IMG/VR virus record: IMGVR_UViG_2740892442_000004
Length of the DNA stretch: 64,000 nt
DNA from: a virus
Taxonomy: Duplodnaviria > Heunggongvirae > Uroviricota > Caudoviricetes
Direction: 5' to 3' (one strand)
Part shown: in pieces, positions 4,398 through 57,703 of the stretch
Numbering within the stretch: position 1 is the first letter of the stretch
How the letters are laid out: the number at the start of each line of letters is the position of its first letter
Program-made: the position numbers and the translations under genes
Notes under the pieces: model-generated
What the model was told of the DNA's origin: nothing
The model's database searches: none
What the model saw: only the letters and a program-made list of their open reading frames with translations

Positions 4398-7300
4398 GTG
4401 TTGCCGGGGATGATCGTCATTGGCCCCGACAATAAGCTGTATGAGATCAAGCGCGTAACCAGTGATACGAACATTGTTCTCTCAGAACCTTATACCGGCG
4501 AAACTCAGTCTGAAGTTCCGTGCCGAATCATTACGACCTATGAAGGCGACTTAACACAGTTTAGCGCGCGCTTTACTGCGCTAATGTCGCGTATGTCGGC
4601 TGATTCCAAGTCCATGCGCAGTTGGTTGACTGCGCTGGATGAGGTGACAATCGAGCGTGAAGACGGTACAGAAGTGACCGTTAAGCCGCTAATGCAGATC
4701 GTCAACGAGCACAACGAAAACGTTGAGTGGTATAAAAATAACACTGACGCGATTGATGCTGCTGGCGACAAAGCTCGTGAGGCGGCGGCCAGTGCTGCCG
4801 CAGCAGCAGAAAGCGCCAATACCGCTGGAGAAAAAGCCTCTCAAGCGTCTCAAAGTGCATCCGCTGCGGCATCCTCACAAAGTGCCGCAAGTGCGAGTGC
4901 AACTGCTGCGAAAAAATCTGAAACGAATGCCGCAGCGTCACAACAATCAGCAGCCACTTCTGCATCCACCGCGACCACGAAAGCGTCAGAAGCTGCCACC
5001 TCAGCCCGGGATGCGGCGGCCTCAAAAGAGGCAGCGAAATCATCAGAAACGAACGCATCCTTGAGCGCCAGTAGCGCAGCTTCCTCGGCAACGGCGGCAG
5101 GAAATTCCGCGAAGGCGGCAAAAACGTCCGAGACGAACGCCAGGTCTTCTGAGACGGCAGCGGGACAGAGCGCCTCAGCTGCGGCAGGCTCAAAAACAGC
5201 GGCTGCGTCGTCTGCCAGTGCCGCGTCAACAAGTGCCGGGCAGGCCTCAGCCAGTGCCACCGCCGCCGGAAAATCGGCAGAAAGCGCCGCATCATCCGCT
5301 TCAACAGCCACAACGAAGGCTGGCGAAGCCACTGAACAGGCCAGCTCAGCAGCGAGGTCTGCTTCCGCAGCGAAGACATCCGAAACGAACGCGAAAGCGT
5401 CGGAAACCAGCGCAGAATCCTCAAAAACGGCTGCCGCATCGTCCGCCAGTTCGGCGGCGTCATCGGCATCATCTGCGTCTGCTTCAAAAGATGAGGCGAC
5501 CAGACAGGCGTCAGCAGCGAAGGGCAGTGCCACGACGGCATCCACGAAAGCAACAGAGGCGGCAGGCAGTGCGACGGCAGCATCTCAGAGCAAAACTGCT
5601 GCTGAATCCGCTGCGACCCGTGCGGAAGCTGCTGCTGATCGTGCTGAAGAGATTGCCGGTGCAGTTGCGATGGAAGACGCAAGCCTTACAACTAAAGGTG
5701 TTGTGAAACTTAGCAGTGCTGTCGACAGCACCAGTGAATCGCTGGCCGCAACGCCAAAAGCAGTTAAAGCAGCCAATGACAATGCGAATAGCAGGGTGCC
5801 ATCTAACCGAAAAGTTAACGGTAAAGCACTGACTGCGGATATCACATTAACGCCGAAAGATATTGGTACTTTAAATTCAGTAACGATGTCTTTCTCTGGC
5901 GGGGCTGGGTGGTTCAAACTGGCTACGGTTACCATGCCACAAGCGAGTTCCATCGTTTACATCGCATTGATTGGTGGCGCTGGTTACAACGTCGGCTCCC
6001 CACATCAGGCAGGCATTTCAGAACTGGTTCTACGAGCAGGCAATGGAAACCCCAAAGGGATTACAGGTGCTTTGTGGAAGCGTACAGCTGTCGGATTAAC
6101 GAATTTCGCCTGGATCAACACATCCGGCGATACATATGATATTTACGTTGAGATTGGCAATTATGCGACGAGTGTAAATATCCATTGGGATTGTACTGCA
6201 AATGCGACAGTTTCTATTTATACATCGCCAACATATTCAGCGAGTAAGCCTTCCAGCGTTACCGATGGTGTTGTTTATACGATGTATAGCACACATCAGA
6301 AACCGACGCCGTTAGATATTGGTGCACTGCCAACAACCGGAGGAACAGTTTCAGGTCCGTTGTCTGTTACTGGTGGGATCACCGGAACATTAAATGGTAA
6401 TGCAAGTACAGCAACGAAATTGCAGACGGCAAGATCTATCGGTGGAGTTGGTTTCGACGGTTCTGCAAATATCAACCTTCCAGGTGTAAATACTACGGGT
6501 AATCAGAACACCACTGGTAATGCTGCAACTGCTACAAAACTTCAGACGGCAAGAACTATCGGCGGCGTGAGCTTTGATGGTACTGCGAATATTAATTTGC
6601 CAGGTGTTAATACGACTGGTAATCAGAATACAACGGGCAACGCGGCTACTGCTACGAAGTTGCAGACTGCGCGTACTATTAATGGGGTGTCGTTTGACGG
6701 CTCGGCAAATATTTCCTTGTCGCCAGCAAATATAGGTTGCCCGGCATCTCCTACTGGTTGGTTAACTACAGGAAGTAATGGCGGAGCAATAACAACAGCA
6801 CAGTTAGTGACGTTATTGCAAAATAATGGAGCATTTAACACAAAGTCATGGATTGCTCGATGTGCGTGGGCCTATGCCAATAGTGCAACCATACCAAATA
6901 GTGAAACTGGTTGTGGCGTTATTCCATTGGCAGGAGCTGTTATAGAGGTATTTAATAACGGTAGTAGCTCAAACAATTATACGATCCGTATAACAACGGC
7001 CACAACGACGAGTGTCTCTGGTGCTCTCACTAATGCGGAGTTTATCTATGTATTTAATGGCACAGATTATTCTCCAGGATGGCGAAGAGTATATAACACG
7101 AAAAACAAACCAACAGCCTCTGATGTCGGTGCATTACCTCTTACCGGTGGTACATTATCTGGAGGTTTGACATCTTCTGGCGAGATCATTTCAAAATATG
7201 CAAATGGTTTCCGCATTGCTTACGGTAGCTTTGGGTTCTTTATCCGTAATGATGGATCGAACACATATTTCATGCTAACAGCATCAGGAGACACATTAGG

Positions 7301-7886
7301 TTCATGGAACGGTTTGCGACCTATTACAATTAATAATACCAGCGGTGCTGTATCAATTGGTAATGGACTAAATGTGACTGGTGGCGTAAATGGTAGTTTG
7401 AACGGTAATGCTTCAACAGCTACGAAGTTGCAAACAGCGAGAAACATCAATGGTGTTAAGTTTGATGGCTCAGGCGATATCAACATTAATACATTGGTAT
7501 CTCGTGGCCGAGTTACGGCGTTAAGCGGTTCTGCTCAAGGTACTGCTGGCATTCAAATGTACGAGGCGTACAGCAATAGCTACCCGACCACGTATGGCAA
7601 CGTATTGCACATGAAAGGTGCGAGTGCTGCTGGTGAGGGCGAGTTGCTTATTGGCTGGAGTGGTACGAGCGGTGCACATGCGCCGGTTTTCATTCGCTCC
7701 CGAAGAGATACCACTGGTGCGGCATGGTCAGCGTGGGCGCAGGTATATACCGCTAAGGATTCAATACCTGGTGTGAATACAACCGGTAATCAGAACACTA
7801 CTGGTAATGCTGCCACCGCCACAAAATTGCAGACAGCAAGGAAAATTGCTGGTGTGGCGTTTGATGCTCTGCCGATATTACTTTGA
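4398..7886 (+). CDS. Side tail fibre protein (Stf-like), main part; reading frame breaks near 7865
   Basis: Ala/Ser-rich KxSETNA low-complexity N-terminal region typical of lambdoid side tail fibres; repeated fibre motif (GNASTATKLQTAR.I.GV.FDG.ANI) several times. ORF ends ...GVAFDALPILL* where the repeat consensus expects GVAFDGSADI, indicating a 1-nt deletion. Confidence 0.75.
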   Translation: MLPGMIVIGPDNKLYEIKRVTSDTNIVLSEPYTGETQSEVPCRIITTYEGDLTQFSARFTALMSRMSADSKSMRSWLTALDEVTIEREDGTEVTVKPLMQIVNEHNENVEWYKNNTDAIDAAGDKAREAAASAAAAAESANTAGEKASQASQSASAAASSQSAASASATAAKKSETNAAASQQSAATSASTATTKASEAATSARDAAASKEAAKSSETNASLSASSAASSATAAGNSAKAAKTSETNARSSETAAGQSASAAAGSKTAAASSASAASTSAGQASASATAAGKSAESAASSASTATTKAGEATEQASSAARSASAAKTSETNAKASETSAESSKTAAASSASSAASSASSASASKDEATRQASAAKGSATTASTKATEAAGSATAASQSKTAAESAATRAEAAADRAEEIAGAVAMEDASLTTKGVVKLSSAVDSTSESLAATPKAVKAANDNANSRVPSNRKVNGKALTADITLTPKDIGTLNSVTMSFSGGAGWFKLATVTMPQASSIVYIALIGGAGYNVGSPHQAGISELVLRAGNGNPKGITGALWKRTAVGLTNFAWINTSGDTYDIYVEIGNYATSVNIHWDCTANATVSIYTSPTYSASKPSSVTDGVVYTMYSTHQKPTPLDIGALPTTGGTVSGPLSVTGGITGTLNGNASTATKLQTARSIGGVGFDGSANINLPGVNTTGNQNTTGNAATATKLQTARTIGGVSFDGTANINLPGVNTTGNQNTTGNAATATKLQTARTINGVSFDGSANISLSPANIGCPASPTGWLTTGSNGGAITTAQLVTLLQNNGAFNTKSWIARCAWAYANSATIPNSETGCGVIPLAGAVIEVFNNGSSSNNYTIRITTATTTSVSGALTNAEFIYVFNGTDYSPGWRRVYNTKNKPTASDVGALPLTGGTLSGGLTSSGEIISKYANGFRIAYGSFGFFIRNDGSNTYFMLTASGDTLGSWNGLRPITINNTSGAVSIGNGLNVTGGVNGSLNGNASTATKLQTARNINGVKFDGSGDININTLVSRGRVTALSGSAQGTAGIQMYEAYSNSYPTTYGNVLHMKGASAAGEGELLIGWSGTSGAHAPVFIRSRRDTTGAAWSAWAQVYTAKDSIPGVNTTGNQNTTGNAATATKLQTARKIAGVAFDALPILL

Positions 7887-8335
7887 CTGCGGCTAACCTT
7901 AATGCCTATACGAAAACAGAGGTAACAAACCTTCTAAGTTCCTATGTGAAGAGCAGTGCTCTTCCAAGTATGACTGTGCGAACTTCCTCTGTTTCAGGTG
8001 GGGATATGGGCATGAGTTTGTCCACATTCATTAGCCACCTAAAATCAAATGGGGCGTTTAGCAAAAGTTATTGGATTGGCTTTGGCGATGCTATGGGATT
8101 CAATGCTGGCAGTATCAACAATATAACGGGATTTGGTGCTGTAGAATTAGCAGAATCTATAATCGAAGTTTTTAATCTACCTAACGGTGATTATACAATT
8201 CGTTTAACAACGTCACATAAAGCTGACTACGGTGGAGTTACAAACGCAATCCTCGTTTATCACTACCGTAGTAATAGAAGTCCGTCAGGTCAATGGCTGA
8301 AATTTGCAGGTACTGTTGGGGCAACAAGTAACTGA
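7883..8335 (+). CDS. Tail fibre distal (putative receptor-binding) domain, out-of-frame continuation of 4398-7886
   Basis: Starts LTAANLNAY, the expected continuation after the broken repeat. Body NGAFSKSYWIGFG...IEVFNLPNGDYTIRLTT is paralogous to an internal segment of the upstream ORF (NGAFNTKSWIARC...IEVFNNGSSSNNYTIRITT). Confidence 0.55.
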   Translation: MTAANLNAYTKTEVTNLLSSYVKSSALPSMTVRTSSVSGGDMGMSLSTFISHLKSNGAFSKSYWIGFGDAMGFNAGSINNITGFGAVELAESIIEVFNLPNGDYTIRLTTSHKADYGGVTNAILVYHYRSNRSPSGQWLKFAGTVGATSN

Positions 8336-11105: not shown

Positions 11106-11774
11106 ATGACCAAGATCTTTGTGGTTGGCGGCACAAAGGGCGGGCCTGGCAAATCCACCGTTGCCCAGCAAATTGCCGTTTGCCTGAAAGTCAAAAAGAA
11201 GAAGAAGGTTTATATTACCGATATAGATATTCAGCGCACGACAACGAGCTGGTGTGAAGACCGTCGACAGAACGAAGACCTTGAGCTGATTCCTTTTGCA
11301 TACGTTCAGGATGACATCATTAAGCACCTAAAATCGCTTCAGGGTAGAGCTGAGTTTGTAGTGGTAGATGCTGGTGGCTTCGACTCCGAAATTCAGCGAC
11401 AAGCGATGCTGATGGCTGACGTTATCATTATCCCGCTGCGTCCTAAGCGTCGTGATTTGAAATCTTTACGTGACATCGATCCTATTATCGACAATGTTCG
11501 CAATGTAAACGATAAAGTGAAGGTCCGCGCGGTCATGAACCAGTGCCCGGCTTTGCCATCACAAGTGTCTCGCATTCTGGCGGCTAAAGAGATTGTTGAG
11601 ACGTTTGGAATCGAGTCTGCGCCAGTCAATCTATATAACCGCAACGTCTATGATGATGCGGAAGAGTCTGGTCGTTCTATCTTTGAAATGACCGGTAGCG
11701 AGCGCGACAAAAAGGCGGAAGCCGAGTTTGAAGAATTTGTAGATTATCTGTTGAGTCTGGAGGAAGAAGAATAA
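11106..11774 (+). CDS. parA: ParA-family partition ATPase (small type)
   Basis: Deviant Walker A GGTKGGPGKST at N-terminus; 222 aa; followed by a small basic protein gene with overlapping stop/start. Confidence 0.85.
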   Translation: MTKIFVVGGTKGGPGKSTVAQQIAVCLKVKKKKKVYITDIDIQRTTTSWCEDRRQNEDLELIPFAYVQDDIIKHLKSLQGRAEFVVVDAGGFDSEIQRQAMLMADVIIIPLRPKRRDLKSLRDIDPIIDNVRNVNDKVKVRAVMNQCPALPSQVSRILAAKEIVETFGIESAPVNLYNRNVYDDAEESGRSIFEMTGSERDKKAEAEFEEFVDYLLSLEEEE

Positions 11775-16623: not shown

Positions 16624-16624
16624 T

Positions 16625-37498: not shown

Positions 37499-38442
37499 GT
37501 GAATTATCTCTTCGTAGATGGCAATAGCTGGGTTATTACCATCAACAATCTGACAAATTGCACAACGGCGAAATGGAAGTACAGGCTGCTTTCGGCTTTG
37601 TTAAGAACGTCCGTCGTTATGCCTCCATCCTCCATGCCCGACCTATGATTCTTTGGGATGGATTTAGTGACAAGCGTCGCGACTTTTACCCGGACTACAA
37701 AGCAAATCGCGACGACGATCCTGATATGAAAAAGATGAAGGAAGGCTTTGCTATCCAGAAGCCATACATCCTCAAAATGATGACCGCGCTTGGAGTTACC
37801 CAACTCATTGCAAAAGATGCAGAAGCGGATGATCTGGCCGGGCTGCTGGTATCCCGCATGGCACCGCAGCCAACCGTTGAACACATCTATCTGTTAACAG
37901 GCGATAGCGACTGGCTTCAGTTAGTTCGTGAAAACGTAAGCTGGGTAAGCCTGCGTGAAGACGCCAAAAACAAGCAGGTTAATTTTGAGCAATTTGCGGA
38001 GCTGACAGGATTCGCCACGCCTCGCGCATTTTTGGAAGCAAAAGCATTACAAGGAGATAACTCGGACAACATTAGCGGTGTTGGTGGCATTGGTGCTGGC
38101 GGTGCGAAAGAGCTGCTGCATGAATGGGGAAGTGTCGCAACGATGGTACGCGGCATCAACGACGGCTCAATCGTGGTTAATAAAGGGCGTCATAAGACCG
38201 CCTTCAACAAACTAGCGAAGAATGCCTTCAACGAGAAAACAGGCTGTCGAATGCTCGAAGCGTTCAAGAGAAACATCACGCTAATGAACCTGATTGAGAC
38301 GAAGTTTCCGCCTACCGAAATCGAAACAATCAAAGGCAATCGTGACGTGAAAGCATTCGAGCAACTGTGCTACGAGCTGAATTTCCGTTCGTTCCTTGAA
38401 GACCTTGAAGTGTTTGTTCTTCCATTCGAAAGGTATTGCTAA
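37499..38442 (+). CDS. 5'-3' exonuclease / flap endonuclease; frame interrupted near 37528
   Basis: N-terminus VNYLFVDGNS (metal-binding Asp) is in one frame; the rest (YYHQQ...FYPDYKANRDD...LLTGDSDWLQLV...GVGGIGAGGAKELL) is in the -1 frame; GGAAGG ribosome-binding site before GTG 37499. Confidence 0.7.
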
Positions 38443-40080: not shown

Positions 40081-40910
40081 ATGAAGAAAGGTTTACTTGC
40101 AGTTGCTCTGGCGGCTATTTGCACAATGGGTCTTACTGGCTGTGATCGCGTGGAGCTGGATACGTTGGCATCAAAGTAAACAAATTAGGTGAAGACAAAG
40201 GGATTGGTGAAGTGGTTGGCGTTGGTCGCCAATGGACAGGTCTTAACACCGAACTTTACGTATTCCCGACCTTCAAACAAATGAAGACCTACGACGAGCC
40301 GTTCACATTCCAGATGAGTGACGGTACTGCTATTGGTCACAAAATTGGCGTTGCGTATCTGGTTAATCGTGACAAGGTAACGACGGTGTTCCAGACCTAT
40401 CGCAAAGGCGTAGACGATATCACCGAATCAGATCTGCGTCAGAAAATTGCCGACTCTCTAAACCGTTTGGCCAGCCGTATGACCACTGACTCATTTATCG
40501 ACGGTGGTAAGGCACAATTGCTGGACAACGCACTGAAAGATATTCAGAAAGAGATGTCTCCGGTTGGTATTGAGGTACTGAGCCTGTCATGGGTTGGAAA
40601 GCCTGATTACCCAAAAACTGTCATTGAATCTATTAACGCCAAAGTAACGGCTAACCAGCGTACTCTGCAACGTCAGCAGGAAGTTGAACAACGTAAAGCT
40701 GAGGCGAATATGCTACGTGAACAGGCTAATGGTGAAGCTGATGCTATCCGTGCTCGTGCGCAAGCAGAAGCAGACGCCATTCGTCTGCGCGGTGAAGCTC
40801 TGCGTCAAAACCCGAACGTTATGGAACTGGAAGCCATCAATAAATGGAATGGCCAGTTACCGCAGTACATGACTCAAGGGGCTAACACTCCTTTCATTAC
40901 AGTGAAATAA
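40081..40910 (+). CDS. SPFH (band-7/prohibitin-like) domain lipoprotein; frame interrupted near 40165
   Basis: Lipoprotein signal MKKGLLAVALAAICTMGLTG/C in one frame (stop 40179); SPFH body ...GIKVNKLGEDKGIGEVV...coiled-coil QRQQEVEQRKAEANMLREQ... continues in the -1 frame from about 40146. Confidence 0.6.
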
Positions 40911-46605: not shown

Positions 46606-48522
46606 ATGAAGTTTTTAAAGCTCCAGGTTGAGAATTTTATGGCTATCGCCAGCGCGGAGGTCGAGTTAGATCAGCGTGGTTTAGTGCTTATTCAGGGTGT
46701 TAATAGTGATGATAGTTCCGCATCAAGTAATGGCTCTGGAAAGTCAACTCTAATGAATAGCCTGATGTGGTGTCTTTATGGCGAAACAGCTCATGGTGTG
46801 AAGGGTGACGATGTGTTGTCTACCGACCATGAAAAGAACTGTCGTGTTGCAGTAACCATCGAGGATGAAGGCAAGAGATACGCAATCATTCGTCACCGTA
46901 AACACAAAGAGTTCAAAAATCGTCTTATCGTTCGTGGTGAAGATGGCGATATGACGAAAGGCAAAGATGCGCTGACGCAGGAGTTCGTCGAGCGTCTGAT
47001 CGGTGCATCTAAAGAGGTTTTCATGGCTTCCATCTATGCGAGCCAAGAAGCTATGCCAGATTTACCTGGAATGTCCGACAAAAACCTCAAAACCATCGTA
47101 GAAGAAGCCGCTGGCGTTGACAGACTGACACGCGCCTACGCTATTGCTCGTGAGCGAGCTAATGCAGCTGCCGCACGTATGGATGTGGTTAAAACCAAAT
47201 TGGAGTCGACAATCTCGACCATTGAGGCAACACAGTCAGAAATTGAGTCAGCGAAAGCCTCCTCTGAATCATGGGAGCAAGAGCGTTCTAAACGTTATGA
47301 CGATGCCCTGGCTGGGCTGGCCAGTGCCGAAGTTGAGTTAACGGAAGTTGAACTTGAGATCCGCACTCTTCCCGAACAGATACGTGATACCGAGAAGGCA
47401 ATCGAAAGTGAGCGCAAAAAGTTAGCCTCAAAAGAAGAACATGACGCCAAGTTGCTCAAAGTTCGTGGTGCGATAACTGATATTCGGGCAAGCATCAAAG
47501 CTACAGAAAATAGTCAGGCTGATGCAATGAGCCGCGCGCGCAATTTTAAGACCAAAGCAGAAGAGGTTGGTACTAAAGTAGGATCACCATGCCCTACTTG
47601 TGGCAAAGCCTACTGCGAAGAAGATCTATCAACGGTGAAGGAGAATTTCATTGAACAAGCACGTCAGGAAATTGGTCAGGCGAAGACACTTGCAGAGGCA
47701 ATGGCTAAACACAAAACGAATCTTGAGAAAGCGTTAAGCATTGAGTCTGCCCTTGTTAAAACGACACCTGATGTAACGGCTATCATTGCCCGGATTGAAG
47801 AGCTTACGAAACAACTCTCATCTTTGCGTCATCGTGAGAAGGAGGTTGTTGCTATTGAGTCTCTTGTGACTCGTGCTCGTACTGAGGTCGATCGTATATC
47901 AAAAGAGATTAATCCGTTTATTGCTCTTATCGCCAGACACGAAGATAACTTGGTATCCAGTAAGTCTACCTTCAAGTCCTTAAAAGATGAGTTGAAGGCT
48001 ATTCAGGAACAAACGTTGCTATTGGAAAAAGCTCGTCAGGTCTACTCTCCTGCCGGGGTGCGTTCTCATATTTTGACGTCTGTTACGCCTTTCCTGAATA
48101 CACGCACTGCCGAGTATCTCAATACGTTGTCTGACGGGAATATTACTGCTGAGTGGTCGACGATGGATGTCACTAAAAAAGGTGAGTATCGCGACAAATT
48201 CAACATTAGTGTGCAGAAGAAAGGTTCAAGTAAGTCGTTCCAGACCCTCTCTGGTGGTGAGAAGCGGAAGGTTCGCATTGCGTGTTCTTTGGCATTGCAG
48301 GATCTGGTTAGTAACCGGGCGAGTAAAAACATCGATTTGTTTATCGGCGACGAAATTGACGATGCACTCGATACAGCCGGTCTTGAACGCCTCATGGGTA
48401 TTCTGGAGTCCAAAGCTCGCGAGCGAGGTACTGTGCTGATTATCTCCCATAAAGAGATGAAGTCATGGTTCCGGGAAACTATTACGCTGGAAGTTAAAGA
48501 GGGGCGCAGCTATGTCGTTTAA
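46606..48522 (+). CDS. SbcC/Rad50-like ATPase
   Basis: Walker A NGSGKSTL, coiled-coil middle with CPTCGKAYC zinc hook, signature LSGGEKRKVRIA, Walker B LFIGDEIDDALD. Confidence 0.8.
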   Translation: MKFLKLQVENFMAIASAEVELDQRGLVLIQGVNSDDSSASSNGSGKSTLMNSLMWCLYGETAHGVKGDDVLSTDHEKNCRVAVTIEDEGKRYAIIRHRKHKEFKNRLIVRGEDGDMTKGKDALTQEFVERLIGASKEVFMASIYASQEAMPDLPGMSDKNLKTIVEEAAGVDRLTRAYAIARERANAAAARMDVVKTKLESTISTIEATQSEIESAKASSESWEQERSKRYDDALAGLASAEVELTEVELEIRTLPEQIRDTEKAIESERKKLASKEEHDAKLLKVRGAITDIRASIKATENSQADAMSRARNFKTKAEEVGTKVGSPCPTCGKAYCEEDLSTVKENFIEQARQEIGQAKTLAEAMAKHKTNLEKALSIESALVKTTPDVTAIIARIEELTKQLSSLRHREKEVVAIESLVTRARTEVDRISKEINPFIALIARHEDNLVSSKSTFKSLKDELKAIQEQTLLLEKARQVYSPAGVRSHILTSVTPFLNTRTAEYLNTLSDGNITAEWSTMDVTKKGEYRDKFNISVQKKGSSKSFQTLSGGEKRKVRIACSLALQDLVSNRASKNIDLFIGDEIDDALDTAGLERLMGILESKARERGTVLIISHKEMKSWFRETITLEVKEGRSYVV

Positions 48523-49255
48523 ATTAAGCCGCTCGCAGTTTTTGCAGGTATTTGCAGTGATGCAGTCGATAAAACTGATCAATGGGCATACTTCCAATGG
48601 TGCGGCTCCACGTATTCTGTGGGGCAGCAACAATATTGACGGAGTACAATTCGCCGCGTTGCTTGGTCTAATATCCGAGACGCCATTGATGCAAAGTTTG
48701 AAATCACTACCACCTGGATGTATTGCGCCGATCCTGATTAATCCTTTTGTTGAGGGGGGATATCTTCCCAACGTCGGGCCTGGGTTTATTGCATCCCATG
48801 AAACTGAAGATCTTAACATTAATAGCGAAGGGTTCTTTGGGGGAATGGGTGCGCATCACTGTATGGCTTTCACGAACCTTATTCGACTTGCCAATAAGCG
48901 GGTGGATAGTTTGGCATCGCCAGGTGATGCTTTTACTGGTTTCCTTATCCAAAGGAGGGATAAAAAGTACAGTGCGGACAAACTACAGTTTGTTGGTAAG
49001 TATGGAGAAATGGTAGAAATCGAACTTCAGCTCCCTCATGTTTTAGCAAACGATAGTGCAGACAGTCGGAGGCTATTGGGCATCATGCGTCATTTCATAG
49101 CAAGTGGTGTTAAACATGCCGCAGATAAACGTGTCACGCAGGAAAATGAGTATTCAGACTTTGCAAACTATCCCCAACCAACGTTGCAAACGGCAATAGT
49201 AGCCAATTCGTTGGAGGCGAGATTATTGGAAAACCCTATATGGGGAACATGGTAA
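48512..49255 (+). CDS. Hypothetical protein
   Basis: 247-aa ORF between the SbcC-like and RuvC-like genes. Confidence 0.45.
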   Translation: MSFKLSRSQFLQVFAVMQSIKLINGHTSNGAAPRILWGSNNIDGVQFAALLGLISETPLMQSLKSLPPGCIAPILINPFVEGGYLPNVGPGFIASHETEDLNINSEGFFGGMGAHHCMAFTNLIRLANKRVDSLASPGDAFTGFLIQRRDKKYSADKLQFVGKYGEMVEIELQLPHVLANDSADSRRLLGIMRHFIASGVKHAADKRVTQENEYSDFANYPQPTLQTAIVANSLEARLLENPIWGTW

Positions 49256-49264
49256 GGAGACTAT

Positions 49265-49834
49265 ATGAGTAAAAAAATCAGCGTAGTTGGTGTTGATCCC
49301 TCAATGAGCAACTTTGGGCTTGCTGTGGGCACTTTAGACCTTGAGACGGACGAACTTGAGATTCACGGCCTTACTCTTGTTGAGACTAAAGCGGGGAGTA
49401 ACAAAAAGACCGTTCGTGTGAACAGTGACGATCTGCGCCGCGCCAGTGAAATATGGCGTGTTGCGAAGCCAATCATTGATAAGGCAAATATGGTTTTTTG
49501 TGAGCTACCGGTTGGGAGCCAAAACTCTCGTTCGCAGACGTCTTACGGTATTTGTATCGGTGTACTTGCGTGTGTGGATAAGCCATTGATCCAGGTTACT
49601 CCAAACGAAATCAAGCATTTTGTCGGCAATAAACTTACTACATCGAAAGAAGAGATTATCCAGTGGGCTACGAAAAAACACCCTAAAGCACCGTGGCTGC
49701 GTCGTAAGCAATCTGGACAGGATGTTCTCGTGAACAAAAACGAACATTTGGCTGATGCGGTGGCTGCCATCCATACCGGTATGCAAACAGATCAGTTCCG
49801 CCAGGTGCGCGATGTTCTTAAGTCTCTCATTTGA
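49265..49834 (+). CDS. RuvC-like Holliday junction resolvase
   Basis: N-terminus ISVVGVDPSMSNFGLAV and HLADAVAAIHTG fit the RuvC/RNase H-fold resolvase pattern. Confidence 0.6.
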   Translation: MSKKISVVGVDPSMSNFGLAVGTLDLETDELEIHGLTLVETKAGSNKKTVRVNSDDLRRASEIWRVAKPIIDKANMVFCELPVGSQNSRSQTSYGICIGVLACVDKPLIQVTPNEIKHFVGNKLTTSKEEIIQWATKKHPKAPWLRRKQSGQDVLVNKNEHLADAVAAIHTGMQTDQFRQVRDVLKSLI

Positions 49835-49862
49835 TTTCATTGATAGGTAAGTGCTTATCTAT

Positions 49863-49893
49863 TAACATGGGCCACTATATTTAGTGGCCCTCT
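49863..49893 (+). terminator. Rho-independent terminator
   Basis: GGGCCACTA-tattt-AGTGGCCC followed by TCTTTATTT. Confidence 0.6.
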
Positions 49894-49907
49894 TTATTTG
49901 GTGATAC

Positions 49908-52221
49908 ATGATAAGCATCGTAAAACGTAACGGCCAAACAGAGCCGTTATCCGAAGAAAAATACAACCGCGTCGTAATGTATGGCGTAGAAGGCATTCGT
50001 GGTGTAAGCGCATCCGCTGTAGCAATGGGAGCTGCGGCCAGCATTTTTGATGGGATTACCACCAGCCAGTTGCATGAGGCTTTGGTTAAATCTGCCGCTG
50101 ATTTGATCTCACCAGAAGCACCAAATTACTCACAGGTGCTGCCCGCCTGAACATTTTTAAAATCCGCAAAGATGCCTTCGGTCGTTACGACTATCCGAAC
50201 TTCTACCAACACATTGTCAAGAACGTTAACAAGGGCGTTTATGACAAGGATTTGCTGACACATTATTCGTTTGAAGAGATCGAAGAACTCGGCAATTACA
50301 TTAAGCCGAAACGTGACGATCTTTTTGGCTATGCAGCTACGGTGCAGTTGCAAAGCAAATACCTCGTTCAAAACCGTGTTACTGGTGAGATTCATGAGGG
50401 GCCGCAACATATCTATATGCTGGTAGGCATGTGTCTGTTCCAGAATTGGGAAGACGACTGCGCTGGCAAAACACGTATGGAGATGGTCAAAGGTTTCTAT
50501 GACGTTACAAGTACGTTCAAACTGTCTCTGCCCACACCAATCATGGCCGGCGTCCGTACTCCAACCCGTCAGTTCTCCAGTTGTGTGCTGATTGAGTCTG
50601 GCGATAGTCTGAAAGGGATTAGTGCAGCTTCAGCCGCAATTATCGACTACGTTTCACGTCGTGCTGGAATTGGTATTGGTTTTGGCCGTATCCGTGCGCT
50701 GGGCAGCGAGATCCGCAATGGTGAAGCCACCCATACCGGAGTTATTCCATTCCTGAAGCATTTCCAGACGGCTGTTAAATCTTGTTCGCAAGGTGGTGTT
50801 CGTGGTGGCGCAGCAACAGCGTTTTACCCGATCTGGCATCTTGAAGTTGAAAGTCTGCTGGTGGTGAAAAATAACCGTGGTATTGATGAAAACCGCGTTC
50901 GCCATCTTGATTACGGCGTCATGAGTAACCGTCTAATGTACCGTCGACTCGTCAGAAGCGAGAACATCACTCTGTTCAGCCGCATGATGTGCCTGATATG
51001 TACGAAGCCTTCTTCACAGACCAGGAGCTGTTTGAAAAGCTGTACCATAAATACGAAGCCGATGATTCAATTCGCAAGAAGCCAGTACCTGCCATTGAGC
51101 TGTTCTCATCTCTGATGCAGGAACGAGCGTCCACGGGCCGAATTTATATTGCGAACGTAGATCATATTAACGAGCATGGCGCTTTCATTCCTGCTCTTGC
51201 ACCTGTTCGCCAGTCAAACCTGTGCATGGAGATCACTCTACCCACTCGTCCACTGGCATTTACCGACGACCCGAACGGTGAGATCGCGCTATGCACTTTA
51301 TCCGCTTTTAACCTCGGAGCCATCCGTTCACTGGAGTCTCTTAAAGAGGTGGCGTTCTATGCCGTTGCTGCACTGGATTCGTTACTGGATTATCAAGACT
51401 ATCCGATGGAGGCAGCCGAAGTGCCTGCCAAAGCTCGTCGTAGCTTGGGAATTGGTGTAACCAACTTTGCTTATTACCTGGCAAAGAATGGCGTTCGTTA
51501 TTCTGATACCGCTGGCAATAAACTGGTGCATGAAACGTTCGAAGCTATCCAGTATTACCTTCTTGATGCCAGCTGCCGACTTGCTGAAGCAAAAGGTGAG
51601 TGTGACTGGTTTGAGCAGACCAAGTACGCAATTGGTCAGTTGCCGATCGACCATTACCGTTCTTCATTAGACGAAAGTGGCGAAACCAACTTTGAGTTAA
51701 AGATGCCGTGGGAAGAACTGCGTGAACGTATTGCAAAATACGGCCTTCGCAACTCCACACTGACGGCACAAATGCCATGCGAGACTTCCAGCCAGATCAC
51801 TAATTCCACCAACGGCATCGAACCGCCTCGTGGCCCGGTGTCGGTGAAATCTTCTAAGGACGGCATCGTTAAGATGGTCGTGCCTGAGTTTGAAAAACTG
51901 AAGGAACAGTATGAATACCTGTGGGATATGCCGGACAACCGCGGCTATCTGACAAAGGTGGCGATCATCCAGAAGTTCTTTGACCAGGCTATTTCAGCCA
52001 ATACCAACTATGACCCTTCTCGCTTTGAAGGCGATAAAGTCCCAATGATGACGCTACTGTCAGATTTGCTTCTCGCCTACAAGATGGGAGTTAAAACGCT
52101 TTACTACCACAACACCAGAGATGGGGCAGGAAAGCGTGATGACGACGAACCGCAGAATCCACTGACGCAAGCTGTAGCCGTCGAGCCAGAAGATGAGTGC
52201 GACGGAGCCTGCAAAATCTGA
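49908..52221 (+). CDS. nrdA: Ribonucleotide reductase class Ia large subunit NrdA; frame interrupted twice (near 50140 and 50965)
   Basis: Three track ORFs (49908-50150, 50252-51115, 50989-52221) read consecutively as NrdA, tracking the E. coli enzyme: ATP cone, ...VRTPTRQFSSCVLIE..., ...SNLCMEI..., C-terminal CDGACKI. Each junction is restored by adding one base. Confidence 0.85.
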
Positions 52222-52223
52222 CA

Positions 52224-52255
52224 TATGGTGGGGGATATCCCCACCTTCTCTTTGA
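52224..52255 (+). terminator. Rho-independent terminator after nrdA
   Basis: GGTGGGGGATATCCCCACC followed by a T-rich tract. Confidence 0.65.
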
Positions 52256-52327
52256 TTTGTAAGCCTTGTTTAAACACATAAGATAACAACTTGTTTAAAC
52301 GCACCAAAAAAGAAAAAGGAAAAACAC

Positions 52328-53470
52328 ATGTCATATTCAACGTTCCGTTTGGGTGCTAATGATGCAACCAAAGAGCCTATGTTCCTCGGACAATCTGTCA
52401 ACGTGGCACGTTACGATCAGCAAAAATACCGTGATTTTGAAAAGTTGATTGAACGTCAATTGTCTTTCTTCTGGCGGCCGGAAGAAGTTGATATTTCGAG
52501 CGATCGTATCGACTTCAACACGAAGCTGCGGGACCACGAACGTCACATTTTTCTGAGCAATCTCCGTTATCAAACGTTACTCGATTCAGTTCAGGGACGT
52601 AGCCCAAATGCAACGCTGCTGCCGCTTATCTCTATTCCTGAACTGGAAACGTGGGTTGAAACATGGTCTTTCTCTGAGACTATCCATAGCCGCAGCTACA
52701 CCCACATTATTCGTGGCATGGTGGACGATCCGAGCATTGTTTTTGACGGTATTGTTACGGATGAAGAAATCATCAACCGAGCGATCAGTATCTCTGCTGA
52801 ATATGACAGGCTTTATGGGATGACCTGCGAGCGCCAGTCGTTAGGTGAGAAAGAGTTTGAACGTCTGTACGTAAATGAATATGGCTGGGAGCCATACCCT
52901 TTGCATCGTCAGCTTTTCCGCACGTTGGTGTCCATTAATGCGCTTGAGGCGATCCGTTTCTATGTAAGTTTTGCATGTACGTTTGCCTTTGGCGAACGGA
53001 AGTTGCTTGAGGGTAACACCAAAATTATGCGCTTTATTGCCCGTGATGAAGCTCTGCATTGCGAAGGAACTGAACGCATGATCCGCTTCATGCGTACCGG
53101 TCGCGAAGGTTTATTGTGGAAAGAGATTGCTGCTGATGAAGAAAACGTCATTTACGACACCATGAAATCAGTCGCCGAACAAGAAATGAACTGGGCAGAC
53201 TATCTCTTCAAAGACGGTTCGATGATTGGTTTAAACGCGGATATTCTGAAGACCTATGTAAAATACCGAACCAATCTGGCTATGAATCGTCTTGGCCTGA
53301 AGGCTTTATTTCCAGAAGTTACCACTGATCCGCTGGTCTGGATGAACAAGTGGTTGTTAACCGACACACTGCAAATTGCACCACAAGAGGCAGAGCAAAG
53401 CACATATCTGGTAGGTCAGATCGATTCTACCGTGGATAAGGCTTCTCTAAGCCAGTTTGCAGACCTGTAA
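52328..53470 (+). CDS. nrdB: Ribonucleotide reductase class Ia small subunit NrdB
   Basis: [55 protein letters not shown] is near-colinear with the E. coli NrdB N-terminus; 380 aa. Confidence 0.9.
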
Positions 53471-53547
53471 ACCGATACAAAGCATTATGTGGCCTGGCAA
53501 CGCTGGGCCACAATGGATCACAAGAATTAAGAAGGAACAAAACTAGC

Positions 53548-54417
53548 ATGAACTTTACCAAACTGACTGACCACCTGAAACTTGCCACCGATCGACTCAT
53601 TGGATTTAAGCCAGAACCATATGAGTTGCATGAAGGCCATGGTGTAGCCACTGAAAGTATTTACAAGATGGTCGATCAGTTTCATGAACTCTTCCAGCAT
53701 CCGAGACGCGTTATGCCGACACCAGAGCTGCTTCGTCTCCGTGCAAGCCTGATTCATGAAGAAGCTGTAGTGGAAGGTATTCCAGCTGCAATGAATGGGG
53801 ATATTGAGCAACTGCTGGATGCAATGGCCGACTTTTTATACGTTGGTGTTGGTACGATGGTCGCCATCAAAGGTGGTATTTCTACCGGCATGACCTATTA
53901 CACGCAGGAACAGAGCATTGATCGCTTTATGCAGACAATTTTTGTGCCCGGTAACACTGTTTTCGATGATATGGCAATGCCATTTCAGGAAGCTCGTGAG
54001 GCGTCATGTATGCTCGAAGAGCTGGCAGATAAACTTGAGAACAAGACTGTTAAGGATTCTGAGCTGATTCAGGAACTGCGCCGTGTCATGAACAAAATCT
54101 ATGTGGCGTGCATGATGACCTATCGACTGGCTGATTTCCTCGGTATCAATGTAGTCGAGCTGGTTGGCGAAATTCATCGGTCTAACATGACAAAATTATG
54201 GCCTGCTGATGTAGAGGAACGTCACCAGGCTGTGGCCAACTGCAAATACGACTCTTCAGACCTGGGATTTCGCCATGCTGATGGTACCGATAAGATGATC
54301 GGTTTTCGAATTTCCGATGGAAAGATTCTGAAGTCTCCAACCTATAGTGATGTCGATTTATCCTCCTTTGTTGAGCAAGCTAAAGCCTCAGCAATGTACG
54401 GAATGATCAAAAAATAA
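53548..54417 (+). CDS. Putative all-alpha NTP pyrophosphohydrolase (MazG/dimeric dUTPase-like)
   Basis: IHEEAVVEGIPAAMNGDIEQLLDAMADFLYV resembles the EExxE...D metal-binding helix pair of MazG-type enzymes; sits in the nucleotide-metabolism block. Confidence 0.4.
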   Translation: MNFTKLTDHLKLATDRLIGFKPEPYELHEGHGVATESIYKMVDQFHELFQHPRRVMPTPELLRLRASLIHEEAVVEGIPAAMNGDIEQLLDAMADFLYVGVGTMVAIKGGISTGMTYYTQEQSIDRFMQTIFVPGNTVFDDMAMPFQEAREASCMLEELADKLENKTVKDSELIQELRRVMNKIYVACMMTYRLADFLGINVVELVGEIHRSNMTKLWPADVEERHQAVANCKYDSSDLGFRHADGTDKMIGFRISDGKILKSPTYSDVDLSSFVEQAKASAMYGMIKK

Positions 54418-54485
54418 TTGTAGGTAGTTATCTATCTATGTATATTGTGTTGGCGCGTTAAATTCCTGAAACAACTATTCGTTTT

Positions 54486-54510
54486 TGGTGGCCTATGGCC
54501 ACCATTTTTT
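54486..54510 (+). terminator. Rho-independent terminator
   Basis: GGTGGCC-tat-GGCCACC followed by ATTTTTTTAT. Confidence 0.7.
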
Positions 54511-54588
54511 TATCTATCTGGCCTTGTTCTCTCAATAAATGTAAACTCACGTAATGAATAAGTGGTTACTTATCTTTGTGAGGTTTTT

Positions 54589-55692
54589 GTGTCACTCCTT
54601 TTGAATCGTGAGCATACGAACGGTCAGGTAACAAACGCATCGTATGCAAAAGTTATTGAGACGGTGCTTAAAAGCGGCGTGCAGGCTGATGATCGCACAG
54701 GCACTGGTACTTTAAGCACCTGCTACGTTCCCTCTTACTACATGCTTACTGGTGGGACTGTGCCGCTTATTTCTGGAAAGGCGGTAAATCTTAAGCCACT
54801 GCTTGTCGAACTTGAGTGGTATCTGAAAGGCACGGGCAACATCCAATTTCTCAAGGATAACGGCGTTAAGATTTGGGATGCATGGGCCGATGAGAATGGC
54901 GATTTGGGGCCGGTTTACGGTAAGCAGTGGCGTCGATGGGAAGATACCCGCATCGTGAGCCATAGTGAATATCTGAGCAAGATCGCTACTTTCCGTGAAC
55001 GCGGGTACAAAGTCGAGGGATACCTGGGTATCAGTGAAGATCGCGTAGTGCTGTCCCGTGAAATCGATCAGCTACAGCGTATTGTCGATACACTGCGCAC
55101 GAACCCTACCGATCGTCGCATCATGCTTAACGCATGGAACGTAGGCGAGCTTGAGGATATGAAACTGCCACCTTGCCACTTTGTCTTCTCTTTGTGGAGT
55201 CGTGAGCTGGATTTTGAAACCCGTTTAACGATGGCAACTGACATTGGTCTTCAACACAGTCGCCTCGGTTACGAGTCTATCTACACCAAGATGCTATACG
55301 ATCTGGAGATGGACGGCAGTGTTACTGAAGCTGAACTGGATGAACTTGGAATCCCCAAACGCATCCTCAACTCCTGCCTCGTACAGCGTAGCGTAGACAC
55401 TTTTGTTGGTATGCCATTCAATATTGCTGGCTATGGCATTCTCACTCATTTTCTCGCGAAGATTACGGGTCACATGGCCGGTGCATTTGTGCATTTTGGC
55501 TTTGACGTGCATTTGTACAACAACCACATGGAAGGTGTGTGTGAGCTAATGAAACGACAGGCTCCAGAGCATTCAGATCCGGTCGTTATTTTCCCTCATG
55601 AATGGTCAGAGTTGGATGATTTCAAATGGGACGAGGTTTTAATTCTTGGCTATGACCCTCTATCGTGGATCAAGGTTCCAGTGGCGGTGTGA
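54589..55692 (+). CDS. thyA: Thymidylate synthase (ThyA) with insertions
   Basis: DDRTGTGTLS, LELEWYLKG, IWDAWADENGDLGPVYGKQWRRW and catalytic LPPCHFVFSLW; GTG 54589 follows GAGG ribosome-binding site (track's longer ORF starts inside a promoter-like motif). Confidence 0.85.
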   Translation: MSLLLNREHTNGQVTNASYAKVIETVLKSGVQADDRTGTGTLSTCYVPSYYMLTGGTVPLISGKAVNLKPLLVELEWYLKGTGNIQFLKDNGVKIWDAWADENGDLGPVYGKQWRRWEDTRIVSHSEYLSKIATFRERGYKVEGYLGISEDRVVLSREIDQLQRIVDTLRTNPTDRRIMLNAWNVGELEDMKLPPCHFVFSLWSRELDFETRLTMATDIGLQHSRLGYESIYTKMLYDLEMDGSVTEAELDELGIPKRILNSCLVQRSVDTFVGMPFNIAGYGILTHFLAKITGHMAGAFVHFGFDVHLYNNHMEGVCELMKRQAPEHSDPVVIFPHEWSELDDFKWDEVLILGYDPLSWIKVPVAV

Positions 55693-55693
55693 T

Positions 55694-56107
55694 ATGGCAA
55701 GAGGTATGTATGTCTTATGCGAAATTGAAGGTGTGCTGGCAAATGCCAGCCATCGTAAATCAGTATCTGACGCGGATGCAGGCCAGCTCATTGCCGGTGA
55801 TGAACTCATTTTCCCCACCAGCCGTATGTTGCGTGGTTTTGCTCGCTCAGGGGCTGAAGTGGTGCTTATCAGTAGCCGCTCTGAAACTCTTGAAGCGCCA
55901 ACTAAACGATGGCTGAAAGATTTTGGCGTTGATTATGACTGGCTTCATCTCGTACCGAATGGCACCAGTTATGAGAAGCATATTAAGCGCACATTAGCGG
56001 AGCATAAAGGCGATCTGCTTATCGCTGCGCTGGTGCACGATCCTCGACTCCGTGCCGCTTTAGCCGACTCTCACCATCGACCGGTCATCTATGAGGTGAG
56101 CAAATGA
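55694..56107 (+). CDS. Hypothetical protein
   Basis: Start ATG 55694 overlaps the thyA stop (TGATATG); 137 aa; no confident motif. Confidence 0.4.
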   Translation: MARGMYVLCEIEGVLANASHRKSVSDADAGQLIAGDELIFPTSRMLRGFARSGAEVVLISSRSETLEAPTKRWLKDFGVDYDWLHLVPNGTSYEKHIKRTLAEHKGDLLIAALVHDPRLRAALADSHHRPVIYEVSK

Positions 56108-56580
56108 AGATGATCGCTGCTGTTGGCCGTAACTATGAGATCGGCATAGCGAATGAACTCCCCTGGCGTTGTTCTACCGATCTGAAGCTATTTAAGAGAC
56201 TCACCAAAAACGCCACTGTCGTTATGGGGCGTAAAACGATGGAAAGTCTCAAACGCCCTCTTCCAGAGCGTCATAACCTCGTTTTGACGCGCTCTCATGG
56301 CTTTGTACCAAATGGATTCTACCCTGCTGGTGTGGATGATGTGTTGCGATTACCAGAGCCTGTGTGGGTGATTGGCGGGGAACAAATTTACTCGCTATTC
56401 ATGCCGCATGTTGAAGAGATTTGGCTCTCCCACATCGGCGTTGATGTGCCAAACGCCGATGCATTCTTCCCGGCAAGCATGATGCGTAATTTAGGCTTTG
56501 TGCCTGTTGAAACAGCTTATACCCAACGAGCCAGCGAGGAAGAGCCTGGCTTTTCGCAGATCGTATACAGAAGGTCGTAA
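56104..56580 (+). CDS. folA: Dihydrofolate reductase
   Basis: MKMIAAVGRNYEIGIANELPWRCSTDLKLFKRLTKNATVVMGRKTMESL...VWVIGGEQIYSLFMP parallels DHFR motifs; coupled to upstream gene (ATGA overlap). Confidence 0.85.
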   Translation: MKMIAAVGRNYEIGIANELPWRCSTDLKLFKRLTKNATVVMGRKTMESLKRPLPERHNLVLTRSHGFVPNGFYPAGVDDVLRLPEPVWVIGGEQIYSLFMPHVEEIWLSHIGVDVPNADAFFPASMMRNLGFVPVETAYTQRASEEEPGFSQIVYRRS

Positions 56581-57014
56581 TGGATTACCGGATTGGGATC
56601 ACTGGTGCTCAGGGCAGTGGGAAAACAACCCTGGCTAAATATATCGACAAACATTACGGAATCCCTTACGTGGATGCTGGTGTCGGAAGTTTGATGAGCC
56701 GCCTCGGTGTTCGAGTAGGTGATTCTATGCCTCTATATGAGCGGCTTCAGATTCAAATGGAAATAGCAAAGCATATAGAGCTACTTACGCGTGGTGTTGA
56801 AGGCTTTGTTATCGATCGCACACCTGCTGATGTTATGGCCTACACGTTGGATTTGGTCGGCCATACAAATGAAGATCGGTGTATTGAGTTAGCCCTCGAT
56901 ATCGAAAAGTTTTGCCACAAAACTGCTATTTCAAACTTTAACGCCATTGCTGCTTACGCCCGGGAGTCGCTCTCTCAGAGCGAGATTACTTGCGATCACA
57001 ACGAGCATCATTAG
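56580..57014 (+). CDS. P-loop NTPase, putative nucleotide kinase
   Basis: Walker A GITGAQGSGKTTLA at N-terminus, 144 aa; nucleotide-metabolism context. Confidence 0.5.
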   Translation: MDYRIGITGAQGSGKTTLAKYIDKHYGIPYVDAGVGSLMSRLGVRVGDSMPLYERLQIQMEIAKHIELLTRGVEGFVIDRTPADVMAYTLDLVGHTNEDRCIELALDIEKFCHKTAISNFNAIAAYARESLSQSEITCDHNEHH

Positions 57015-57284
57015 ACCGTCTGTATGTCGCTCGTATTGATGCGTTGATGTGCGGGGAACTGACAAAAATTCACCTGCATCCGCAAAGGGGAGATCTGCAA
57101 ACCTTCGTCGTTTCCAACCGATATCGCACGGTTGAAGCAAGAGCCAGATCAGTGATGAGAATGCTAGATAACGCTGTAGAAAAGATAGAAAACCGGTTCT
57201 GTGGCCGAGTGACCGTTCATTAGAAATTGTTCGCCTCTTCGACATTGCGACAATAAAACTCTCAAAATGGGTTAAGGATAAAAA

Positions 57285-57703
57285 ATGTTTAGTGAAATGT
57301 TGCTTGAAGATGAACTGGATCGGAAAACAACAGAGGCTTTGATTCGTGTAGCGGACGAACATTCCCGGTCGCTTATGAGCGATCGAGAGGCTCGTCTGGC
57401 TATTCGTGCCATATTCGAACTGCGCAGGGGCTTGTTGGTACACAAGTGGGTGAAGCCATTAACATCGCCATGTCTCAGTTCAGTGAAGGCAGTAAAAAGC
57501 CTCTGTTTCCTATGCATTTGATGCTGGCTGGTGGCACGGTGCTTTATATCTCTGTTTGTCTGGATAGCAACCAAATCAATATTCTCAACACTGTGTCAGG
57601 TAAGTGGAAAGATCCGATTGTCTGTGAAACCAGTGAAGAAACTTTGAAAAAAGCGGCTCAATTTGTACGTAGCGCACTACTTAAGGGCGCTAAGAAGTTG
57701 TAA
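57285..57703 (+). CDS. Hypothetical protein(s); two overlapping ORFs possibly one gene with another -1 frame break
   Basis: ORFs 57285-57521 and 57446-57703 overlap with a -1 frame relationship like the other interrupted genes; no motif. Confidence 0.3.

Follow-up and report, generated by a model that had tools for sequence, protein, structure and literature searches.

The window that we analyzed, a stretch of 64,000 nucleotides from a viral sequence record, appears to encode a phage with broken genes. A preliminary description reported that at least six of its genes are split by single-base deletions. Annotated as recorded, the window would look like a defective element without a tail fiber, an integrase, a flap endonuclease, or a ribonucleotide reductase, and surveys might count the uncorrected record as a "decayed" phage-plasmid. 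Are these genes truly broken, or are the bases missing from the record instead?

Identity of the element

The element in the window is an E. coli phage-plasmid of the pLF82/Cyrano type (SSU5-like), and its gene order is collinear with that of described members. The shared parts of the window are 97-99.9% identical to pLF82/Cyrano-type phage-plasmids, with divergent blocks at ~83%. No entry in the phage, plasmid, or E. coli complete-genome collections matched the window at 100%. We compared the window to a set of SSU5-like elements (OV696614, NC_011917, and CP099286.1; see PMC9928086 and PMC7969092), and the structural, replication, and partition genes of the phage-plasmid were all matched. The shared genes include the tail fiber, lysis, par, helicase/primase, ligase, tRNA, integrase, CobT/CobS-like, DnaE, SSB, flap endonuclease (FEN), RecA, SPFH, RepA, SbcCD, NrdAB, ThyX, and DHFR genes. 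The genes that are broken in the window are intact in these relatives.

For full-length alignments, we used three relatives: Cyrano (OV696614), pAMPD01 (NZ_CP058309), and CP099286.1. The nearest of these is CP099286.1, which is 99.75-99.86% identical to the window, with one 1283-bp stretch at 100%.

Single-base deletions in coding sequence

Compared to the three full-length relatives, the window has 10 single-base deletions in coding sequence (Table 1). They affect eight or nine genes, eight of which are named here. A deletion was confirmed at every place named in the preliminary description, which understated their number: the sites at 4376 (tail fiber), 42496-42498 (Cra-like, G4 to G3), and 56952 (AAA ATPase) are additional. 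For the tail fiber (reported at about 7865, and found at 7866), for FEN (37528), and for the first site in nrdA (reported at about 50140, and found at 50138), the reported positions needed no correction. At four other places, the deletion is real but its position needed correction. The integrase deletion, reported at about 25535, lies within the run of C at 25503-25504, and 25535-25540 is the end of the old frame (its stop codon is at 25538-25540). Similarly, the correct position is 40156 instead of 40165 for the SPFH deletion, and 50980-50981 instead of 50965 for the second site in nrdA. The split that was considered possible at 57285/57446 is due to a deletion at 57418-57419 (A3 to A2).

The tail fiber gene starts with the ATG at 4309, not with the GTG at 4398. 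The FEN deletion lies ten codons into the gene, the SPFH deletion directly follows the lipobox (LTGC), and the deletion in the Cra-like gene alters its final codons.

Table 1. Genes with single-base deletions in the window, and the changes relative to intact homologs.
Feature	Coordinates	Strand	Deletion
Tail fiber, in three pieces	4309..8335	+	C absent at 4376 (AGCCTGG to AGCTGG, Dcm site); gaps vs. three relatives
Tail fiber, second deletion	7866	+	G absent (TGGCT to TGCT); gaps vs. three relatives
Tyrosine integrase	24725..25827	+	C run 25503-25504 one C short (AGCCCAGG to AGCCAGG, adjoins Dcm site)
5'-3' exonuclease / flap endonuclease (FEN)	37499..38442	+	C absent at 37528 (AGCCTGG to AGCTGG, Dcm site)
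SPFH/stomatin-like lipoprotein	40081..40910	+	C absent at 40156 (AGCCTGG to AGCTGG, Dcm site)
P1 Cra-like small gene, 70 aa	42309..42520	+	G run 42496-42498 one short (G4 to G3)
nrdA (class Ia ribonucleotide reductase alpha), in three pieces	49908..52221	+	G absent at 50138 (TGGCT to TGCT)
nrdA, second deletion	50980-50981	+	C run one short (AGCCCGC to AGCCGC)
AAA-family ATPase, 214 aa in relatives	56580..57223	+	G absent at 56952 (TGGCT to TGCT)
Hypothetical 139-aa gene (CYRAN_76 homolog)	57285..57703	+	A run 57418-57419 one short (A3 to A2)

There are 13 one-base gaps relative to CP099286.1, and not all of them are private to the window. Three intergenic differences, at 24542 (T5), 24548 (C3), and 54512 (T7), are common to other relatives. 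These are ordinary length polymorphisms and lie outside the deletion phenomenon.

Repair of the reading frames

We put back one base per deletion site and compared the products to the proteins of CP099286.1. Full-length reading frames were regained, with no further damage, and six of the eight proteins were 100% identical to their counterparts: FEN (314/314), the SPFH protein (276/276), the Cra-like protein (70/70), NrdA (771/771, although it is frameshifted twice), the AAA ATPase (214/214), and the 139-aa protein (139/139). The repaired integrase (367 aa) is identical at 366/367 positions. The repaired tail fiber is a 1342-aa open reading frame from 4309, with 1192/1194 residues identical to the fiber of CP099286.1.

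Outside these genes, each CP099286.1 coding sequence with an end-to-end alignment is undamaged in the window. The single flag was a stop variant of rnhA. This variant occurs in Cyrano too.

Distribution of the deletion alleles

None of the ten deletion alleles is present in the three full-length relatives. In particular, the closest member of the lineage (CP099286.1) lacks all of them, so there is no sign that they were inherited. Among viral and metagenome contigs, which gave allele-typed matches for seven of the sites, 0 of 108 matches had the deletion. In IMG/VR contigs, the intact allele was found at the tail fiber site at 7866-7867 (11/11), in the integrase (32/32), FEN (2/2), the SPFH gene (21/21), and the AAA ATPase (8/8); for nrdA, there were 19 intact alleles and no deletions, and metagenome contigs were intact as well (15/15). 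The pattern that combined the junctions in the AAA ATPase and the 139-aa gene had no match in IMG/VR, and the AAA junction was then typed alone. The loci that we fetched were intact for FEN (17/17), the Cra-like gene (10/10), and the 139-aa gene (15/15). Across the fetched loci for all ten sites, we found no deletion allele except in one unrelated IMG/VR contig (L023), which carries the same deletion at nrdA 50980. Either the same error or the same mutation may have recurred there. A search of 153 billion gene positions found no record of the truncated products that the window appears to encode for the integrase and NrdA.

Among the matches listed, the nrdA span is 2602-2603 nt in relatives, as compared to 2601 nt in the window. 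We rejected the idea that relatives with the 2602-nt span have an nrdA deletion: their nrdA is intact at 2316 nt, and therefore the difference in span length is in the flanking spacers, outside nrdA.

Natural variation and the possibility of decay

From 24280 to 64000, the window differs from CP099286.1 by 63 mismatches and 11 gaps, and each gap is one base deleted in the window. The ratio of private deletions to private substitution events across these 39.7 kb is about 8:9. In the ~16 kb from 44071 to 60000, there are four private coding deletions and three substitutions in all. Natural indels, which we collected from 880 kb of aligned relatives, are mostly in longer A/T or G/C runs. Many of them are non-coding (according to the relatives' annotation), and they include insertions as well as deletions, or have lengths divisible by three.

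If the deletions were real, then the window might be a decaying phage-plasmid that is kept solely as a plasmid, with its phage and nucleotide-metabolism genes becoming pseudogenes. The replication and partition genes are intact (the repA-side region, and parA at 11106-11774), whereas a plasmid can be maintained without the broken genes. An element that persists only as a plasmid could bear the loss of every one of them, which makes real decay biologically conceivable. Also, the literature describes defective derivatives of phage-plasmids (PMC12977533).

Nevertheless, we consider decay to be improbable. Decay should produce a mixed spectrum of lesions, but we found no nonsense mutations, larger indels, or insertion sequences, only one-base deletions in runs of 2-4 bases. 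The repaired proteins match those of the relative, without the extra substitutions that would be expected in dead genes, and no near relative carries a deletion allele. Finally, 8 private deletions alongside 9 private substitution events would require an indel rate far above the natural variation of the relatives.

Spectrum and sequence context

The one-base length changes in coding sequence are all in one direction, with 10 deletions and 0 insertions. The preliminary description placed the missing bases in short runs of G or C, which holds for 9 of the 10 (these runs are of length 2, 2, 3, 2, 2, 4, 2, 3, and 2 in the relatives). The tenth, the A3 run at 57418-57419 in the 139-aa gene, is the sole A/T site.

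Eight of the ten sites share a strand-symmetric context, AG-C(n) (AGCC or GGCT). We spotted this context by inspecting the data, and the permutation test corrects for the choice of context (family-wise P ~5e-6). To our knowledge, exactly this k-mer has not been described in print as an error context. Also, four of the ten sites overlap the Dcm motif CCWGG (P ~2e-4, with matching for base class and run length). The pattern of deletions is far beyond chance. Just 4 of the 96 Dcm sites in the window and 8 of the 539 AGCC/GGCT sites are affected. This counts against an error process, whose rate would have to be low, as in a partly polished assembly. Among the private substitutions from 24280 to 64000, which cover just 11 positions, only the one at 54224 adjoins CCAGG.

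The deletion sites do not resemble phase-variable (contingency) homopolymers, which we took to be tracts of at least ~7 bases that differ in length from one relative to another. In the relatives, the runs at the deletion sites are 2-4 bases long, and their lengths are invariant. A poly-A tract at 60980 does vary in length (A5-A10), unlike those runs.

The sequence context bears on decay as well, as we know of no counterpart to this k-mer and Dcm bias in spontaneous frameshift mutagenesis. Spontaneous frameshifts favor long runs, as seen in mutation-accumulation studies of E. coli.

Could a real, context-specific mutational process act at AGCC and CCWGG, such as Dcm methylation combined with Vsr short-patch repair, or a mutator host? 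The eight sites with AGCC and the four sites with the Dcm motif would fit, and so would the nrdA deletion in the unrelated contig L023, which would be the sign of a true hotspot for mutation. However, damage at Dcm sites is known to lead to C-to-T transitions, not to deletions, and there is no excess of transitions in the window (three substitutions in 16 kb relative to CP099286.1). At the other nine sites, no other relative has a deletion, with dozens sampled, and the L023 coincidence is explained no less well by an error that recurs at this k-mer. We regard such a process as very improbable. The combined scenario, in which a real AG-CC/CCWGG frameshift process inactivated the broken genes of an element that now survives as a plasmid alone, is just as hard to credit. 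Real deletions would indicate an unusual, context-specific form of frameshift mutagenesis, and nothing here favors that reading.

Expression of the split genes by programmed -1 ribosomal frameshifting or by transcriptional slippage at the junctions is effectively refuted: although all ten shifts are -1 and the old and new frames overlap by 22-208 nt, much like programmed frameshifts (such as those of the G/GT type in tail assembly chaperones), none of the ten overlap zones contains a slippery heptamer (X_XXY_YYZ), transcriptional slippage would need longer runs, and the shift stems from a base that is missing relative to every relative. Every relative encodes these proteins in one uninterrupted frame, without recoding, and therefore there is no conserved recoding site.

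Consensus errors as the best explanation

We propose, with a probability of roughly 90%, that the ten frameshifts are sequencing or assembly consensus errors and are not features of the phage-plasmid's DNA. We observed directly that the alleles are private, that repair is perfect, that the spectrum is deletion-only, and that the context is biased; we infer the technical cause and the sequencing platform. Along with the contrast to natural indels, these observations support the preliminary description's preference for sequencing error over true pseudogenes. Its suggestion that homopolymers are the cause was right in part, but the AGCC/GGCT and CCWGG context is the stronger signal. As would be expected of an artifact, the deletions are absent from independent, near-identical assemblies (L023 excepted), each is repaired by a single base, and they are deletion-biased in a systematic context.

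The deletion-only spectrum, the short G/C runs, the sequence context, and the privacy of the alleles match long-read consensus errors. Judging from this pattern, the source is most likely a long-read assembly, probably from Oxford Nanopore. The assembly would have been polished incompletely or not at all. Single bases would have been dropped at particular k-mers, namely AG-CC(n) or its complement, including Dcm-methylated CCWGG, with a few further drops in short homopolymers.

In nanopore consensus sequences from Enterobacteriaceae, errors at Dcm motifs dominate, and homopolymer length comes second (Wick et al. 2019, PMC6591954). Long-read errors are also known to give rise to false pseudogenes (Kastor, PMC12007338). 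The window is similar in that it is enterobacterial DNA whose errors are gathered at CCWGG and homopolymers, and in that single-base deletions, which close relatives reveal, fragment otherwise perfect genes. Unlike in those descriptions, just four of the ten sites are Dcm motifs, and the dominant AGCC/GGCT context of the window does not appear in them (PMC6591954, PMC12007338). Six sites are runs of 2 bases; as PMC6591954 counts homopolymers from 3 bases up, its scheme would list these under plain "deletion". The error rate, at ~1 per 6.4 kb, is far below that of unpolished assemblies.

If the deletions are consensus errors, then the true element probably has an intact tail fiber, integrase, FEN, SPFH protein, Cra-like protein, NrdA, AAA ATPase, and 139-aa protein, and we infer that they are virtually the same as the proteins of plasmid CP099286.1. 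In other words, its sequence suggests that it is probably an intact and ordinary pLF82-type phage-plasmid. The apparent frameshifts are almost certainly not a real feature, and the biological interest of the deletions is low. The main value of this result is quality control of the sequence record, and the recurring context (AGCC/GGCT together with CCWGG) offers a practical way to spot further instances of the artifact in this assembly or data set.

Other differences from SSU5-like relatives

The window's RecA is without the Hint/intein insertion of the SSU5-like relatives. Compared to them, the window has an extra tRNA-Tyr, and it carries different cargo at 16.6-18.4 kb and at 22.3-24.3 kb.

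Ten private one-base deletions

Over its 64 kb, the window is collinear with Cyrano (OV696614), an E. coli phage-plasmid, at ~97-98% identity. Cyrano is equal in length to plasmid pLF82 (NC_011917). The window has a less similar match in Salmonella phage SSU5. The nrdA region has relatives in ~200 complete E. coli genomes and >600 PLSDB plasmids. We retrieved three relatives over the whole window: Cyrano, pAMPD01 (NZ_CP058309), and CP099286.1 (E. coli RHB03-SO-C05). CP099286.1 is the nearest, with 99.75-99.86% identity across 24280-64000, including a 1283-bp stretch at 100%.

In gapped alignments, the window lacks exactly one base at each of ten sites, all inside genes that are uninterrupted ORFs in the relatives; the three relatives agree at every site (see table). 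The preliminary description had reported genes split by -1 deletions, and these alignments bear that out, with small corrections to the coordinates. Three sites (4376, 42496, and 56952) were not on its list, and its start coordinate, 4398, marks only the first GTG in the middle fragment of the fibre gene; the fibre truly starts at ATG 4309.

One-base deletions in the window, public contigs matching the intact junction, and repaired proteins (residues identical to CP099286.1)
Gene	Position	Relatives	Window	Dcm site (CCWGG)	Intact junctions	Repaired protein
Tail fibre	4376	AGCCTGG	AGCTGG	yes		1192/1194; 1342-aa ORF from 4309
Tail fibre	7866	TGGCT	TGCT		11/11 (IMG/VR; junction 7867)	as above
Integrase	25503-25504	AGCCCAGG	AGCCAGG	adjoins	32/32 (IMG/VR)	366/367
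5'-3' exonuclease/flap endonuclease (FEN)	37528	AGCCTGG	AGCTGG	yes	2/2 (IMG/VR)	314/314
SPFH lipoprotein	40156	AGCCTGG	AGCTGG	yes	21/21 (IMG/VR)	276/276
Cra-like protein	42496-42498	G4	G3			70/70
nrdA	50138	TGGCT	TGCT		19/19 (IMG/VR); deletion pattern 0	771/771
nrdA	50980-50981	AGCCCGC	AGCCGC		15/15 (metagenome contigs)	as above
AAA ATPase	56952	TGGCT	TGCT		8/8 (IMG/VR)	214/214
139-aa hypothetical	57418-57419	A3 (sole A/T site)	A2			139/139

We searched public contigs with junction-spanning patterns in which the base was optional, and all of the contigs that matched carry the extra base. We also typed 113 fetched loci at all ten sites and found a deletion allele in just one, at the second nrdA site of contig IMGVR_UViG_2617271087_000005. 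This contig is from another lineage (99.2% identity, with 62 mismatches in 8.3 kb). At the equivalent of 50980-50981 it has the identical deletion (CAGCCCGC to CAGCCGC), and its alleles are intact at the first nrdA site and at the SPFH and integrase sites. The shared deletion might reflect a true hotspot, or else an error that recurs at this k-mer. In a large gene-position index, we found no record of the truncated integrase or the NrdA fragments as gene products. Three one-base differences from CP099286.1 (24542 in T5, 24548 in C3, and 54512 in T7) were left out as ordinary polymorphism: they are intergenic, and other relatives have the window's allele.

We put back the single missing base at each site and compared the resulting ORFs with CP099286.1 (see table). 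In the raw window, all other coding sequences of CP099286.1 that align at full length are intact, and the majority are 100% identical at the nucleotide level. The sole flag was rnhA: at 61605 the window and Cyrano have T, and pAMPD01 and CP099286.1 have C. This substitution falls within the stop codon of the window's ORF, which ends at 61607; the aligned end is three bases on, at 61610. Because repair restores the ORFs and the other full-length coding sequences are intact, the missing base is the only damage to the nine affected genes.

Comparison with natural variation

Between 24280 and 64000, the window has eight private coding deletions, as against nine private substitution events (11 positions), where private substitutions were judged only at positions covered by at least 5 relatives. 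From 44071 to 60000, the window has only three substitutions relative to CP099286.1, yet it has four private coding deletions.

To survey natural indels, we aligned 880 kb of relatives to the repaired window. Natural indels lie mostly in longer A/T or G/C runs (T6-T8, A5-A10, G6, C5), and many are between genes as annotated in the relatives. Bases are both gained and lost; divergent blocks contain some compensated pairs, and some indels have lengths divisible by three. In other public assemblies, a short coding run seldom has an isolated one-base change, and such changes are singletons. Counting by eye, we found roughly two dozen singleton indels, whatever their kind, in the 880 kb, with insertions about as frequent as deletions. 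By this comparison, the window's indels are of a different kind and occur at a much higher density.

The poly-A tract at 60980-60987, upstream of rnhA (61017-61607), is A8 in the window and CP099286.1, A6 in Cyrano, and A10 in pAMPD01, whose rnhA is annotated as frameshifted; other relatives have anything from A5 to A10. This tract is genuinely hypervariable, in contrast to the ten private sites. Isolated homopolymer frameshifts are also present in other public assemblies of this element. For instance, a 744-nt gene (48512-49255) has a G6 run at ~48755; the run is shortened to G5 in one metagenome contig and to G4 in plasmid p2 of E. coli E03 (NZ_JBUZKL010000003.1), whose annotation splits the gene into two fragments.

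Sequence context of the deletions

The private changes comprise 10 deletions and 0 insertions. Nine of the deletions are in G/C runs, and the run length in the relatives is 2 at six sites, 3 at three sites, and 4 at one site. Eight of the ten share a strand-symmetric context: the deleted C lies in a C run that follows AG, which reads as AGCC on the + strand at five sites and as the complement, GGCT, at the other three. Taking all of the window's homopolymer runs, only 4.4% have this context. In a permutation test that drew ten runs of matching base class and length and took the best of all two-base flanking contexts, eight was reached only once in 200,000 trials (family-wise P ~5e-6). Four of the ten sites overlap Dcm motifs, of which the repaired window has 96 (matched P ~2e-4). 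The AGCC/GGCT context is our own observation; we did not find it described in the literature.

At 54224, the window has a private substitution (A, versus G in 27 relatives) immediately 5' of a CCAGGCT Dcm site. On the complementary strand this site reads AGCCTGG, the context in which deletions occur, and the substitution may be a further error of the same kind.

Probable sequencing error and its alternatives

The preliminary description suspected sequencing error, and our results support this. The changes are private, deletion-only, and context-specific, without collateral damage, which points to long-read consensus error; decay, hotspot mutation, or recoding would not produce such a set. We put the probability that the ten frameshifts are artefacts at roughly 90%.

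Biologically, a plasmid-only derivative could really be decaying, as plasmid maintenance needs none of the nine genes. But decay predicts a mixed spectrum of lesions, extra substitutions, and lesions shared with the nearest lineage, and we saw none of these. A real mutational process with this context specificity would account for the coincident nrdA deletion in the other lineage, but no excess of transitions accompanies the deletions, and we know of no mechanism that gives deletions at Dcm sites. Programmed frameshifting at the junctions is excluded: the frames are intact in all relatives and we found no signals for it, with no canonical slippery heptamer in any frame-overlap zone.

As for consensus error, Wick et al. 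reported that Dcm motifs accounted for ~70% of the errors in nanopore consensus sequences of Enterobacteriaceae when default models were used, with homopolymer-length errors next, and that polishing removed only ~70-80% of the Dcm errors (PMC6591954). False pseudogenes due to long-read indels are a recognised problem (PMC12007338). The window has ~1 deletion per 6.4 kb, with 4/96 Dcm sites affected, which is in keeping with a long-read assembly that was partly polished or of a later generation; we infer the platform. We judge the feature not to be biological, and its sole value is as a quality flag for the window's sequence and its source assembly.

Other features of the window

In the window and CP099286.1, recA (38711-39784 in the window) encodes a plain 357-aa RecA (Pfam RecA). 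The equivalent in Cyrano and pAMPD01 is a 2340-nt gene annotated as "hint domain-containing protein": their recA has an intein-like insertion of ~1.26 kb, with its junction near window position 38900. Just after recA is a GC-rich hairpin (GGCGTCC-TGT-GGACGCC) whose 3-base loop (39798-39800) is TGT in the window and ACA (or AAA) in relatives. The difference would fit inversion of the loop in a terminator-like hairpin.

The window has four tRNA genes (Asn, Tyr, Thr, and Ser; 21985-22638). The annotations of Cyrano and pAMPD01 list three, for Asn, Thr, and Ser; tRNA-Tyr (22065-22151) is extra relative to those two. Two variable cargo spots (16583-18425 and 22273-24280) are unaligned to all three full relatives, and Pfam gave no match for the ORFs there, two on the - strand (350 aa and 420 aa) and one on the + strand (264 aa). 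In the primase gene, the block at 15508-16583 has dense differences, mostly at third codon positions (~88% identity, versus 98-100% around it), which suggests that it was acquired by recombination from a more distant relative.

The dihydrofolate reductase gene (56104-56580) is 100% identical at the nucleotide level to its counterpart in CP099286.1. RefSeq annotates the pAMPD01 homologue as trimethoprim-resistant DfrA51 (see also PMC12217456).
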